Shown here piece by piece: positions 11,187 through 14,706 of a stretch of 64,000 bases of DNA (position 1 is the first letter of the stretch; every line of letters begins with the position of its first letter). Below the pieces are notes generated by a model that searched no databases, was not told the DNA's origin, and saw only the letters and a program-made list of their open reading frames with translations. Made by a program: the position numbers and the translations under genes. This DNA comes from a virus. The stretch lies in IMG/VR virus record IMGVR_UViG_3300043403_000102, positions 18,089 to 82,088 of that record; one strand, written 5' to 3'.

Positions 11187-11960
11187 TCAACGTACATTGA
11201 TGTTGGCGAAGGACGGTCCCGTGTTGCTCGCCTGAGCAGCCCCGCCCCAACGGGACATCGCCTCGCGGCAGAACCACATTGCCATGACGGTGTCGGCCTG
11301 CCCGCTCATGGGGTAGTTGTTGACCTCGGTGGTCCAGACGCACCAGCCGCACTGACAGGTCGGGGGGTGGCCCTCGAACTCGTCGGCGGGGATGACCCAG
11401 GCCTTGTTGGCGAACTCGACTTCTAGGCTGGGCAGGCCGACGTCGACCTTGTGCTTGTTGGCCCCGGTGGTGAAGCTTTCGATCTTGTACCAGAACGAGG
11501 CATCGACGCCGCCGACGTTCCGAATCCAGTCGATGATGGACTGCTGGTATCCGTTGTTCTCGACCATGATGTGCCGCACGTTCGGGTAGCTGGCGTGCAT
11601 CTGGGCCAGGTTCCGGGCGGTCTCGGGGCTGGTCCAGGCACCCCTTCGGATCTCCAGAGGGTAGCGGCGCTGGGTCGTGGGGTCGATAGACGCGGCAAAG
11701 ATGACGTTACCGGCCCGCGTGGCCCCTGCCAAGTCGACACCCATGAACGTGGGCCAGCCGCTGCGCTGGATATTCCCCAGGGCCACGCCGTGGCTGTAGC
11801 AGTTCTTGAAGCTCGGGAACAGCCGCTCCTCGTCCGTGAAGGCGCGCATCTGGAACCCACGGGCAAAGCTGCGGGGGTTCTCCTGCTGCTCCCTGCGAAG
11901 GCGGTCGGCGGGCCAATGCTCCCAAGGAGCCAGGGCAGGCAGCCGGTGCGTGTGGTTCAT
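11187..11960 (-). CDS. terL: Terminase large subunit, C-terminal nuclease part (separate gene)
   Basis: WPADRL...SFARGFQ lid segment, RNase H-like GVDLA, VENNGYQ and DTVMAMW motifs. No Walker motifs. Confidence 0.8.
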   Translation of the reverse strand: MNHTHRLPALAPWEHWPADRLRREQQENPRSFARGFQMRAFTDEERLFPSFKNCYSHGVALGNIQRSGWPTFMGVDLAGATRAGNVIFAASIDPTTQRRYPLEIRRGAWTSPETARNLAQMHASYPNVRHIMVENNGYQQSIIDWIRNVGGVDASFWYKIESFTTGANKHKVDVGLPSLEVEFANKAWVIPADEFEGHPPTCQCGWCVWTTEVNNYPMSGQADTVMAMWFCREAMSRWGGAAQASNTGPSFANINVR

Positions 11961-12199
11961 TCCGTCAGTGTAACAACTGTCGTGACCGATGCCCGGAACT
12001 GCAGGAGCAACGCATCGATGAAGGGCTTCCCGTCTTTGGGAGCCACGACACCTCCTGCAGCCATGCTGTAAATCCCGTCATCCATGTCAGCGGAGAACTC
12101 AGGGTCATTGTAGGTCGCTTCGACCGTTCCGTCCTTCAGCAGCTCGAAGGAAGCCAGGCACTCGGGGGACTCGCCAACGGTCATCACGTTGTAGGTCAT
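11957..12199 (-). CDS. Small acidic protein, possible immunity partner of the upstream kinase
   Basis: 80 aa, translationally coupled (ATGA) to the end of the kinase-domain gene. Function is inference. Confidence 0.45.
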   Translation of the reverse strand: MTYNVMTVGESPECLASFELLKDGTVEATYNDPEFSADMDDGIYSMAAGGVVAPKDGKPFIDALLLQFRASVTTVVTLTE

Positions 12200-14706
12200 T
12201 TAGTTCTTACCGTCCCTTCTTCAGAATCTGACCCGCTCCAGGGAACAAGTTTTGAGTATGGAATGTCTTTAGGGCGCGGGCTCCAGCTTGGCGCCACTTC
12301 TGCCATCACGGCTTGCACCGTGCGCTGCGTGTCCTTGCCCAAGTCCAGCTCGGGGGACTCGTGAGAGAACTTGAAGCTGCCCTCTTCGCCGTGAAACTCG
12401 ACCATGCGGGGGTTGGCCTTAAGGGCCTCCAGACGAACGATGACCCCGTGGATCGCTTCGGGCTCCAGGCCGTGAGCCTTGAGGGTACTGGCAATCTGGT
12501 GGGTGTCCGCATGCTCGATCATCTTGGATACCTCCGGGTGTAGCGGGCCCTCGACGTGGCGGTCCACACGGGGCAACTTCGCCATATGGGAGGGGACGAT
12601 GGAGGTGGGGAACGCCAACCCGTGGTCTATGAGCAGGGGCGTGCGGGTCTTACCCTCGTAACTGGGCATCCAGTTCCGGCTGTGCCGATCGGTGTTGCCG
12701 ATAATGAGATCGAAGGCGCGCATCTTTTGGAACCCGACGGGGTCGTCTTGGATTCCCTCCTGGGCTCTCGCGTGGGCGTTCGCGGTCAAGGTCTTCTCCA
12801 CGTCCGCGGGCTTCACACCGAATTTAGCCGCGTTGGCGTTGTAGCGTTCCTGTAGGGCCGCCGTTAATTCCTTCGGTAATCCCTTCGGCTGGTGGGCCGC
12901 CTGGACCGAGCCAATGCCTTCGGGGAGGTCCTCGCGCACCACGGTCGGGGGCACCATGTGCCCGAGGCCGAGGACTTGGGAAAGGGCGTAGGCAGCGACC
13001 TCCCGCTTGTAGCTGGTACCCGGGGTCACGTCAGGACGCATACGCGGCTCCCCCGTGGCAGGCTTGTAGTAGGCCTGAGAGCCGTCAGGGAAGTGTAACC
13101 GTTGGGTAACGGACACCCCCTTCTCCCCTTCCTTAAGGGGCTCGGCCTTTACGGGGGCCACGAACTCTAGCTTCGCGATTCCTTTGTCGATGACGTGGTC
13201 GGAGTCCTTCACATCCTCCTCACTCACCCAGTAGTGCCACTGATGGGACTTGTCCCCTATCTTGCGCTCGCGCTCGACCAGCACGAGGTTCTCACGCCCT
13301 GCCATGCGTGCGACCCCCGGCATTGTCACGCTAGGCACGTCGCCAGGTGTGGTGGTCTCGACGACAGAGCGCACAGGCTCTGCATGCACGTGAACCGCGG
13401 CCCCTATACGCACGAGGCGTGACTCGACGACAACCCAGTTCATTCCTCGGAACACCGCCGCAAGGTACAGGTCTTTGCGAGTGCCATAGTCCGCGGCGTA
13501 GGCGTGCTCCCAGCAGTCGATGGCCAGCAACACTGGGCACCCCGCCATGACGCCGTCGGCATGCTTCTCGACGAGGTTCACCCGAGGGCGCCGTTCGACA
13601 AGATCCCAAACCACCAGCACCCACCCATCGGTCGAACCGCAGGCCGCCCTTAGGTCCCGCGTGAAGTTCTCCCAAGACCCCCAGGACCTCTCGACCGCTT
13701 GAAGAAATACAGGCAAGGGGTGGCCGGGCACCGACGTGAACTGCTCGAAGTAGAACTCGTGCAGGGTCACGGCATTGTAGGCGCTGGGCTCAGACCGCAG
13801 GAGCTCGCCGTGCTCGGCCCACCCCATGCCTGAAAAAGGTTGCACCGCGCGGGGCATCCCGAGCCGATCGGCCACGGTCCCCCGCAGCGTCGTGTACGGG
13901 TCGGGCCTGCCTTGATAAATGTTCGTGGCGGCCTTGCCCCCGAGGGACTGCATGATGATGTCGACCGCTTCGAGCTTGGCCAGGGCCTCGGGCCACGCCG
14001 CATACTCGGCACGCCAGTCAGGGGCCCCGCTATCGAGCCACCTCCCGAAGGCCTCGGCCCAGGCCTCCTCGGGGTGCTTCTGGGCGTAGTGAGCGGGGGC
14101 ATAGGTCAGGTATTCGACGAAGCCCCGGCTGCTGGTGTTGGGCTCTAGGGTGTCGTCGCGCTGGGGGTATGGGATCGTCGGATCTCCGAACGCCGCCAAC
14201 CACAGCGGGTTCGCGCCCAATTCGTACCCGAAGAACACCGCGTGACCCAGCTCATGACGAAGGCAGCGCAGCACCTGGTCAAAGGCATAGGCGAACTCCT
14301 GGGTCCGCGAGGCCAGGCGCCACAGTTCGGCCGTGGCCAGGAACCAGGGGACGTTGATTCTGACGCTCTTGTCCGAGGTCCAGAAGTCTTCCGTCCCCAG
14401 GTACCAGGTGGGCCAGAACGCAGGGGCAGGGGTCTTGTACGTGAACTCGAGCTGTACCAGGGCCAGGGCGTCTTTCAGCGGCCCCACCGCGGGGGCGATC
14501 GAAAGCTCCAGGTGCCTGACGGGGAACGCCAGCAGGGTGCTGGTTGCGGGCCCCCTGGCGGGTTCGGCCGTCAGGGGGTAGGAAGTCTGAATGGCGTTCA
14601 GACGGTCGACCGCACGTCCGTAAAGGGACAAGTGCTGGTCGAGCATGCGGTCACTGATTCCCGTCAGCGCCCCTCGTAGGTAGGAGAAGTCCCTTGCGAT
14701 TCTCAC
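12196..14706 (-). CDS. Multidomain protein: Fe/Mn-SOD-like with inserted Zn metallopeptidase, plus HipA/PI3-4-kinase-like domain
   Basis: SOD: ISDRMLDQH, YNAVTLHEFYF, GWVLVVWD, IDCWEHAYAADY. Peptidase: LRHELGHA, YAQKHPEEAWAEAF. Kinase: YYKP, REVAAY, VPPTV, GNTDRHSRN, IDHGLAF. Confidence 0.8.
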   Translation of the reverse strand: MRIARDFSYLRGALTGISDRMLDQHLSLYGRAVDRLNAIQTSYPLTAEPARGPATSTLLAFPVRHLELSIAPAVGPLKDALALVQLEFTYKTPAPAFWPTWYLGTEDFWTSDKSVRINVPWFLATAELWRLASRTQEFAYAFDQVLRCLRHELGHAVFFGYELGANPLWLAAFGDPTIPYPQRDDTLEPNTSSRGFVEYLTYAPAHYAQKHPEEAWAEAFGRWLDSGAPDWRAEYAAWPEALAKLEAVDIIMQSLGGKAATNIYQGRPDPYTTLRGTVADRLGMPRAVQPFSGMGWAEHGELLRSEPSAYNAVTLHEFYFEQFTSVPGHPLPVFLQAVERSWGSWENFTRDLRAACGSTDGWVLVVWDLVERRPRVNLVEKHADGVMAGCPVLLAIDCWEHAYAADYGTRKDLYLAAVFRGMNWVVVESRLVRIGAAVHVHAEPVRSVVETTTPGDVPSVTMPGVARMAGRENLVLVERERKIGDKSHQWHYWVSEEDVKDSDHVIDKGIAKLEFVAPVKAEPLKEGEKGVSVTQRLHFPDGSQAYYKPATGEPRMRPDVTPGTSYKREVAAYALSQVLGLGHMVPPTVVREDLPEGIGSVQAAHQPKGLPKELTAALQERYNANAAKFGVKPADVEKTLTANAHARAQEGIQDDPVGFQKMRAFDLIIGNTDRHSRNWMPSYEGKTRTPLLIDHGLAFPTSIVPSHMAKLPRVDRHVEGPLHPEVSKMIEHADTHQIASTLKAHGLEPEAIHGVIVRLEALKANPRMVEFHGEEGSFKFSHESPELDLGKDTQRTVQAVMAEVAPSWSPRPKDIPYSKLVPWSGSDSEEGTVRTK

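Follow-up and report, generated by a model that had tools for sequence, protein, structure and literature searches.

Introduction

In the HipBST system, a HipA-type kinase toxin is neutralised by a small protein that reaches into the active site of the kinase. Two further systems are relevant here, as they are described in the main texts of the papers concerned. MuF polymorphic toxins of temperate phages consist of a conserved N-terminus and a variable C-terminal toxin-type enzyme, with a short open reading frame (ORF) immediately downstream, and are encoded in the DNA-packaging module (Jamet et al. 2017, PMC5576092). In polyvalent proteins, metallopeptidase (MPTase) hub domains, which fall into 12 clades, share a single chain with effector enzymes, ADP-ribosyltransferases (ARTs) among them, and a self-processing role has been proposed for the hub domains (Iyer et al. 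2017, PMC5512222). Here we describe a pair of phage genes that invites comparison with all three systems. The pair lies in a 64,000-nt stretch of viral DNA (positions 18,089 to 82,088 of IMG/VR virus record IMGVR_UViG_3300043403_000102), which we refer to as the window and which provides the coordinates used below, unless another locus is named. The first gene encodes P0001, an 836-residue protein in which a Fe/Mn superoxide dismutase (SOD) interrupted by a zincin metallopeptidase (SOD::zincin) is joined by a linker to a kinase, and the second encodes P0002, an acidic protein of 80 residues.

As in the MuF toxins, a conserved N-terminus is combined in P0001 with a toxin-type enzyme at a variable C-terminus, a small ORF (P0002) follows directly, and the genes lie in the packaging module, but the conserved part is SOD::zincin and there is no MuF domain. 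As in the polyvalent proteins, a metallopeptidase lies in one chain with an effector enzyme; going by the main-text description, what sets P0001 apart is that its zincin is nested in another enzyme. We lean towards reading P0001 as a polymorphic effector (polyvalent-type) of the phage and P0002 as its antidote. The term "superoxide" does not occur in the main texts of PMC5512222, PMC5576092 and PMC3482391 (supplementary tables being outside this scope), "PI3K" and "HipA" do not occur in those of PMC5512222 and PMC3482391, and "kinase" does not occur in that of PMC5576092; the supplements of the Jamet and Iyer papers may hold kinase-type or SOD-containing architectures beyond those of the main texts. 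A literature search brought up no paper that describes a phage SOD-peptidase composite or a phage effector with PI3_PI4_kinase.

The P0001 reading frame

The P0001 ORF (12196..14706, minus strand) is a single intact frame that begins with GTG. The GTG is favoured over an ATG 20 codons downstream, which is the start used by the database copy of the protein (P0005), because homologue alignments begin at residues 3-6. The long ORF might alternatively be explained as an artefact of assembly or frameshifting that fuses separate genes, and the earlier note on this DNA, made from its letters alone, had raised such a chimera as a concern. Nothing was found that speaks for such an artefact. Words of the stretch are found in 17 metagenome runs, from freshwater or sediment, with no RNA data set listed among them, and contigs of four other freshwater runs agree with it at 99% identity or more in nearly all pieces, with one substitution, no insertions or deletions and no joints. 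Both junctions of the insert, the SOD-to-kinase junction and the overlap with the partner ORF are bridged by contigs of these other runs (X3 record 3, 13735-14800; X5 record 10, 12625-13612; X4 record 5, 11961-12266). A homologue, P0017, aligns to residues 3-814 of P0001 with 46% identity, and both P0017 and a second protein, P0018, have the same domain order. Since independent contigs span the junctions and two homologues repeat the order, a chimera is excluded for practical purposes.

A superoxide dismutase interrupted by a zincin

The SOD of P0001 is in two pieces. Residues 1-43 (14578..14706, minus strand) contain helix 1 with the first metal ligand, H25 (in the motif DQH), as judged from alignment with the N-termini of free-standing SODs, from structural alignment and from the conservation of H25. 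The rest of the SOD, residues 295-437 (13396..13824, minus strand), contains helix 2 with H316 (LHEFYF) and the C-terminal domain with D397 and H401 (DCWEHAY). Pfam Sod_Fe_C matches residues 335-430 (expectation value (E) 4e-16; 59.3 bits against a cut-off of 20.9), and among solved structures the best sequence match is 1coj, an Aquifex Fe-SOD (Aquifex pyrophilus type; E 7e-18), residues 33-199 of which align with residues 265-433 of the query. P0001 shares the predicted two-domain fold and the four metal ligands with Fe/Mn-SODs of the 1coj type and with a free-standing subfamily of ~200 residues, and has the same motifs (H-x-x-L-Y-x-G-Y-V, L-H-E-x-Y-F and D-x-W-E-H-A-Y), but it differs from them in carrying a protease of ~250 residues in the loop between helices 1 and 2 and an effector at the C-terminus, and in having no match to Pfam Sod_Fe_N even at E up to 1. 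The earlier note had described a SOD split in this way within one ORF, with helix 1 and H25 apart from the rest and with HELGH and HPEEAWAEAF in the insert, and had counted all four ligands as retained; both descriptions hold.

A HMMER search with P0001 returned 3131 proteins at E ≤0.001 and 41 at E ≤1e-30, and about 30 cluster representatives span residues ~5-432. Residues 1-500 of P0001 and 28 cluster representatives make up alignment A1 (29 rows), from which P0005, P0012 (from a 1.6-kb contig, with an unusual C-terminus), P0027 and the matches P0038-P0045, fragments or peptidase-only proteins, are excluded. The ligands are kept in nearly all rows (H25 in 26/28, H316 in 27/29, D397 in 26/29 and H401 in 27/29), and the rows that miss a ligand, P0028 and P0036, are without all four. 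Free-standing SODs of ~200 residues from the same search (P0054 and others) align with P0001 on either side of the insert, which places it in the helix 1-helix 2 loop. The AlphaFold2 model built from A1 has a mean predicted local distance difference test score (pLDDT) of 84.1 and a predicted template modelling score (pTM) of 0.65. With VIA-align, the model superposes on 1coj with Z 25.3 (195 of 211 residues, root mean square deviation 2.0, model range 1-440), and on the M. tuberculosis Fe-SOD 1ids over 189 of 198 residues, starting at residue 1. Because the superposition is on complete SODs, the N-terminal helix and the distal part can be said to reassemble one SOD in the model, which supports the refolding of the two halves into one fold, a question raised in the earlier note.

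Mitoribosomes and the plastid RNA polymerase have SOD-fold subunits with structural roles, and such proteins are among the fold matches of the model (mitoribosome chains, Z 17-21; PEP-PAP complex, Z 21.5). The SOD part of P0001 might thus be a catalytically dead scaffold, which merely holds or dimerises the protease, and the failure of Sod_Fe_N to match and the Ala at position 32 would fit this. The ligand positions, kept in 26-27 of the 29 rows, point the other way, as do P0028 and P0036, which have lost all four ligands jointly, as functional sites do. Residues conserved in the free-standing SODs of the subfamily are likewise conserved in the module. Ligand conservation argues that the SOD site is used, and we regard the dead scaffold as somewhat unlikely.

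The inserted zincin occupies residues ~44-294 (13825..14577, minus strand), with a fold core at residues 52-262, and is recognised by Peptidase_Mx, by conserved motifs and by fold matches. The motif HELGH (residues 151-155; 14242-14256, minus strand) is followed by HPEEAWAEAF (14047-14076, minus strand), which contains E214 and E218. H151, E152 and H155 of the first motif and the two glutamates of the second are invariant in 29 of 29 rows of A1. Among 48,161 representative chains, residues 52-262 match the catalytic domain of anthrax lethal factor (1yqy, Z 8.5), the Pro-Pro endopeptidases PPEP-3 (9g0j, Z 7.2) and PPEP-2 (Z 6.0), and a putative zinc peptidase of Bacteroides (4l7a, Z 6.1), all of which we grade as moderate values. 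Peptidase_Mx, lethal factor and the Pro-Pro endopeptidases share with the insert the HExxH motif and a downstream helix that bears a glutamate. Taking these values together with the invariant motif and with Peptidase_Mx, which passes its cut-off in 6 of 9 scanned homologues that bear the module, we accept the insert as a gluzincin.

The kinase domain

Residues ~520-804 (12295..13149, minus strand) form a kinase domain resembling the type II phosphatidylinositol (PI) 4-kinases, as identified by model, Foldseek and profile. The family was aligned from 32 hand-chosen kinase hits (A2), all shorter than 900 residues except P0101 (994); A2 omits P0015, P0041, P0047, P0059, P0076 and P0137. The model of the domain (33 sequences) has a mean pLDDT of 81.2 and a pTM of 0.80. 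In the same 33 sequences, the catalytic K548, E569, D673 and D694 are invariant and N678 is present in at least 90%, so that the K, E, DRHxxN and DHG motifs that had been called intact (K548, E569, D673-R-H-x-x-N678 and D694-H-G) are also conserved in the family.

The top Foldseek matches are the type II PI 4-kinases PI4K2A/B (4hne, E 3e-8), followed by Fam20C and CtkA, and the family profile matches PI4K2A in the PDB (4hnd, E 5.9e-19). With the type II PI 4-kinases (4hnd, 4pla, 4wtv) and the actinobacterial SCO1664 family, P0001 shares the fold and the catalytic residues, but it scores below the family cut-offs. Membership of the HipA family was rejected: HipA_C scores 12.7 against 30.5 bits, HipA has Foldseek rank 47 (E 4e-4), and HipA is missing from the matches of the kinase profile to the PDB at E ≤0.01. 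The earlier label of a HipA/PI-kinase-like domain therefore stands in its second half, the nearest relatives being the type II PI 4-kinases and the SCO1664 family, and falls in its first half by profile, Foldseek and Pfam alike.

The same kinase occurs in other phage proteins. A scan of viral sequences confirmed 104 kinase loci, of which 80 were kept and 79 hold a kinase ORF. Nine kinase ORFs from other viral loci were examined with Pfam: three have Phage_Mu_F (one of these below the cut-off), three have portal families (again one below the cut-off), one has LigT, and two have nothing else. P0015 (1258 residues) is a Mu-type portal fused to the kinase, with three copies of R-V-P-x-G-S-G-D-x-S-G-E-W and then a run of Gly between the domains. 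Two kinase proteins, L146:2407-6771 and L149:1027-4365, have 2H phosphoesterase (LigT / 2'-5' RNA ligase-like) domains; in that of L146, the kinase is combined with a portal domain and with a 2'-5' RNA ligase-like match that is under the threshold.

The partner protein P0002

The P0002 gene (11957..12199, minus strand) is coupled at both ends by ATGA. The TGA of P0001 overlaps the ATG of P0002, and the TGA of P0002 overlaps in the same way the ATG of the terminase nuclease gene. The computed isoelectric point of P0002 is 4.05. These features agree with what had been noticed earlier, namely a coupled acidic ORF of 80 residues, which together with P0001 stands before the nuclease gene of the large terminase.

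Pfam, PHROGs, NCBIfam and PADLOC contain no match to P0002, and no relative was found by a search of viral contigs with a back-translated pattern. An Atlas feature search gave no usable match, and in an Atlas structure search a cluster of HipA N-terminal domains appeared at a template modelling (TM) score of 0.51 among unrelated rows, which we treat as a lead only. The P0002 family was obtained instead by scanning the ORFs of kinase loci. In a phmmer search with P0002 against 6,526 ORFs (≥40 residues, from the 80 kinase loci), ten ORFs match at E ≤0.055; all ten lie just after a kinase ORF and begin between -64 and +42 nt from its end. After three rounds, the iterated profile finds 72 ORFs at E <1e-3, and only two of them do not adjoin a kinase ORF. 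Counted by distinct kinase ORF (63 in all), this profile places a partner directly downstream in 48, directly upstream in two and elsewhere in the locus in two, with none in 11; a P0002-like ORF therefore directly flanks 50 of the 63. Even the short stand-alone kinases of L157 and L201 are paired, in these cases with the partner upstream. P0002 and 30 short ORFs, hand-picked from the 72 profile hits with duplicates removed, make up alignment A3. Its consensus is D-G-x-x-F-L-x-A-L...Y-x-G-S, with A70-S71 at the G-S position of P0002. None of the 31 rows of A3 has a PHROG match, and the A3 profile finds noise only in the PDB (best E 0.64).

The complex of kinase residues 506-820 with P0002 was modelled in three runs. 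The interaction prediction score from aligned errors (ipSAE) is 0.83, 0.88 and 0.83 (best of three controls, 0.01); the same mark is attained by 58 of the 80 solved complexes and 2 of the 110 mismatched pairs, a calibration that holds only roughly because the complex model was built on unpaired alignments. The partner has a pLDDT of 89 or more, and 78% or more of the contacts are common to the runs. On the kinase, the predicted interface comprises K548, residues 553-558, 675-678 (H675-N678) and 693-694, and on the partner residues 30-41 and 65-78. Since the contacts fall on the catalytic residues of the kinase, the C-terminal strand of the partner is predicted to lie in the catalytic cleft.

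The model supports, rather than proves, binding of P0002 to the kinase active site, and suggests that the kinase acts on a protein rather than on a lipid, given the predicted plug. From gene position and the model together, we infer an immunity role for P0002. The earlier idea of the small ORF as a partner of the kinase gains from the conserved adjacency in other phages and from the predicted binding at the active site. A small protein in the active site of a kinase, as this pair appears to have, is the feature shared with the HipA-type toxins of HipBST; the differences are that HipA_C is under its cut-off and HipA low in fold rank, and that for the partner the Atlas TM score of 0.51 is the sole hint of such a relationship.

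Exchangeable C-termini and the linker

The C-terminus beyond the SOD is variable among the homologues. Thirteen of the 29 A1 rows stop no more than 39 residues after the SOD, four continue for 82-155 residues, and 12 continue for at least 240 residues. P0001, P0017 and P0018 have the same kinase tail in the order SOD-zincin-kinase, and represent three protein clusters at ≤50% identity. P0006, P0007 and P0011 have DRAT-like ART tails (P0010 is just under the cut-off, at 23.5 against 25 bits), and HExxH-containing tails are seen by eye in P0008, P0009 and P0013. The earlier view of P0001 as a multi-enzyme protein of polyvalent type is supported, and its C-terminal enzyme can be swapped among relatives.

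In P0001, the SOD is followed by a Pro-rich spacer, residues 438-470 (13297..13395, minus strand), which is modelled with low confidence (pLDDT <50 over 440-470) and could hold a cleavage site. Behind this disordered spacer is the linker, residues 471-497 (13216..13296, minus strand), which is predicted to be a beta-hairpin (strands 474-483 and 486-495, pLDDT ~80) and has the motif G-R-E-x-L-V ... Y-W-V by model and alignment. Of the 15 rows aligned in this region, 12 show the motif by eye, in the form G-R-E-G-L-V...Y-W-V. It also precedes other enzyme domains in L001, L002, L038 and L043. Neither the 80 kinase loci nor the 80 metagenome loci contain a match to the linker profile. In L038 and L043 (L038:7507-9441 and L043:7656-9599), a zincin without SOD flanks is followed by the linker and a C3-like ADP-ribosyltransferase exoenzyme (E 1e-25 to 6e-27), and ~150 N-terminal residues lie outside the assigned domains. 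Two proteins of L001 begin with the linker motif: L001:14414-15427 has a Zeta-toxin domain (E 1.4e-20), and L001:5330-6133, of 267 residues, has no Pfam family. An ADP-ribosylglycohydrolase (L001:6854-7717) lies two genes upstream of the SOD-zincin-DRAT fusion of the same locus, an arrangement that resembles the DraT/DraG pair.

The conserved linker bears on a further explanation of P0001, which is that the kinase and the 80-residue ORF are a selfish toxin-antitoxin cassette, serving addiction or exclusion, that landed behind SOD::zincin and has no joint function with it. The pair does move as a unit among unrelated carriers and occurs with the short stand-alone kinases of L157 and L201, and P0001 has weak PADLOC matches to candidate defence kinases, over ~20 residues of the catalytic loop only. 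The junction in P0001, however, has the same linker that joins other enzymes to the module and to its peptidase-only relatives, and the fusion is maintained in the three clusters of P0001, P0017 and P0018. With the linker and the retained fusion on the other side, a landed cassette of this sort appears very improbable.

Distribution of the SOD::zincin module

A scan of IMG/VR found 46 loci, 16 with the composite and 30 with the peptidase only, and metagenome contigs contain nine complete composite ORFs of 427-558 residues. In a collection with one genome for each prokaryote species, 591 hits were confirmed; the best 80 of them never match beyond residue 319, and none of these 80 loci has SOD flanks around the peptidase. 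A tblastn search of 50,697 deposited phage genomes did not find the composite; all 12 records obtained match the SOD part only; they include 11 PA5oct-like Pseudomonas jumbo phages, in some of which it is annotated as sodB. The earlier remark that the architecture is unfamiliar from described phages agrees with this result. BFVD has two matches at E ≤0.001, both labelled as superoxide dismutase of uncultured Caudovirales phages, and the one of 501 residues may belong to the module family. The subfamily also has uninterrupted SODs, in 53 viral loci; in 52 loci with free-standing phage SODs, no Mx peptidase was found nearby. Both parent genes therefore exist separately in phages, as free-standing SODs and in peptidase-only loci, and in these scans the composite is confined to viral or metagenome contigs.

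The metagenome contigs L270-L310, several of which come from the same metagenomes, have many peptidase-only proteins of ~330-390 residues. These are ~50% identical to the zincin of P0017 (residues 59-275), and are closer to it than its relatives in the genome collection. The contig of P0017 itself was not recovered from the metagenome contigs, where the best matches span only residues 1-427.

In several of the viral loci, the module gene lies near genes for packaging. A terminase nuclease gene is directly behind it in L001 and L009, after two small ORFs in L004 and four genes on in L007, and portal genes lie within ~6 kb of it in L010-L013. The phages concerned are related to one another, so these cases of synteny are not independent observations.

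Genomic context

The window is part of an 82-kb contig, and its minus strand holds 87 of 114 greedy ORFs. The gene after P0002 (11187..11960, minus strand) encodes the nuclease half of a split large terminase, which matches positions 489-628 of the 760 of phrog_38 (E 1.3e-11). The ATPase half has its own gene at 25477-26337, 13.5 kb from the nuclease gene. In the relative L007 (3077-4638), the two halves are adjacent but separate ORFs with a 4-nt overlap, so the split looks older than the arrival of the genes between the halves.

Downstream is a packaging block (3789-4715, 5563-5994, 6889-8547 and 9667-10944) with a ParB-methyltransferase fusion (phrog_498, E 6e-110), a portal gene (6889-8547; phrog_64) and an HNH endonuclease. 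A short MuF-like head morphogenesis gene at 3789-4715 has no toxin domain and is separate from P0001. Immediately upstream of P0001 is the gene for P0004 (14720-15424; 234 residues), which has no significant match in Pfam, PHROGs, NCBIfam or PADLOC and is 70% identical to the product of an L001 ORF located three genes before the module gene. The region around P0001 also bears other accessory genes (methyltransferases and HNH). No promoter-like or terminator-like sites were found across 10800-16200, and no transfer RNA genes were found in the window.

Proposed function and alternatives

In the effector reading, the N-terminal 437 residues would be a Fe/Mn-SOD whose N-terminal helical hairpin carries at its tip a gluzincin of the lethal factor/PPEP kind, with both metal sites kept, and the disordered Pro-rich spacer and the beta-hairpin would connect this module to an exchangeable enzyme, here one of the type II PI 4-kinase / SCO1664 kind. 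The translationally coupled P0002 would bind the kinase, with its C-terminal strand (A70-S71, G-S motif) entering the catalytic cleft, and would keep the kinase off in the producing cell. P0001 would probably be produced along with the packaging genes, and may leave the producing cell inside the capsid, as the MuF- and portal-fused copies of the kinase presumably do. Travel in the capsid is suggested by analogy with the MuF toxins, going by the main text of PMC5576092, and by the MuF and portal fusions of the same kinase. In the next host, the zincin might cleave the spacer or the linker and so release the kinase, which would then phosphorylate a host protein. That the zincin cuts its own chain may be supposed by analogy with the MPTase domains of polyvalent proteins (main text of PMC5512222). 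The SOD part would bind Fe or Mn, and would then either remove superoxide or serve only as a dimerising scaffold.

Several observations weigh against this reading. Three assignments fall short of their cut-offs in P0001 itself, namely Peptidase_Mx (PF15887; residues 138-224, 20 bits, cut-off 27), PI3_PI4_kinase (PF00454; residues 661-706, 23 bits, cut-off 27.1, with P0017 at 37.6) and the NCBIfam SCO1664 family (TIGR03843; E 4.5e-18, 65.5 bits, cut-off 172.4). In the SOD, the outer-sphere His H382 is retained in just 17 of 28 rows of A1, and position 32, which is Ala in P0001, is Tyr in 16 of 29. For the partner, the first profile round alone gives an adjoining ORF for 16 of the 63 kinase ORFs (15 directly downstream, one upstream and 47 with none), Ser or Thr often but not always occupies the conserved G-S position, and P0002 could alternatively be a substrate or an activator of the kinase and not an inhibitor. 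The DRAT-bearing gene of L001 has no small ORF behind it. Finally, the 13 rows of A1 that end shortly after the SOD are bare modules; about half of the family lacks an effector, and the module must then have a function of its own, which the effector reading leaves unexplained. The Pfam scan of P0001 also finds no Phage_Mu_F or portal domain, and the protein consequently has no physical tie to the capsid.

The last two points lead to the view that the same parts are present and are not packaged. P0001 would then act in the producing cell, as a host-takeover or counter-defence factor, with P0002 switching the kinase on or off and the SOD removing superoxide produced during infection. Free-standing SODs of the subfamily, which occur in the 53 viral loci and in the PA5oct-like jumbo phages (including those with sodB), would be in keeping with such a role, and so would the methyltransferase and HNH genes nearby. 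It is harder to reconcile with the fusion of the same kinase-partner pair to capsid-internal proteins in other phages, and with the position of the gene within the packaging block, chained by ATGA to the terminase nuclease gene. Likewise, C-termini that are exchanged and have antidotes as neighbours suit delivered effectors more than housekeeping enzymes. For these reasons we think action in the producing cell unlikely, and prefer the delivered effector.

The effector reading can be extended to the family, in a form that we put forward as a speculation and consider rather improbable. In this form, a family of phage polymorphic effectors that has gone unrecognised and parallels the MuF toxins would have the SOD-embedded zincin as its conserved hub. 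Its members would be packed in the head with exchangeable toxin-antidote cassettes (kinase and plug, DRAT-like ART and glycohydrolase, or Zeta toxin via the shared beta-hairpin) and would cleave themselves after injection, and an active SOD would enter with the DNA to blunt the oxidative response of the host.

Implications

If the assignment of the N-terminal module is correct, it represents a domain insertion into a Fe/Mn-SOD with both metal sites kept, a case for which the literature search found no description. The module would then be a natural test of how far the SOD hairpin tolerates insertion, and of the coupling between two metalloenzymes. It would also be a new class of N-terminal carrier for phage polymorphic effectors, alongside MuF and portal proteins. 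For the type II PI 4-kinase-like domain and its ~80-residue plug, P0001 would add another independent carrier, and one more independent carrier would make a stronger case for the kinase-plug pair as a mobile toxin-antidote cassette of phages.

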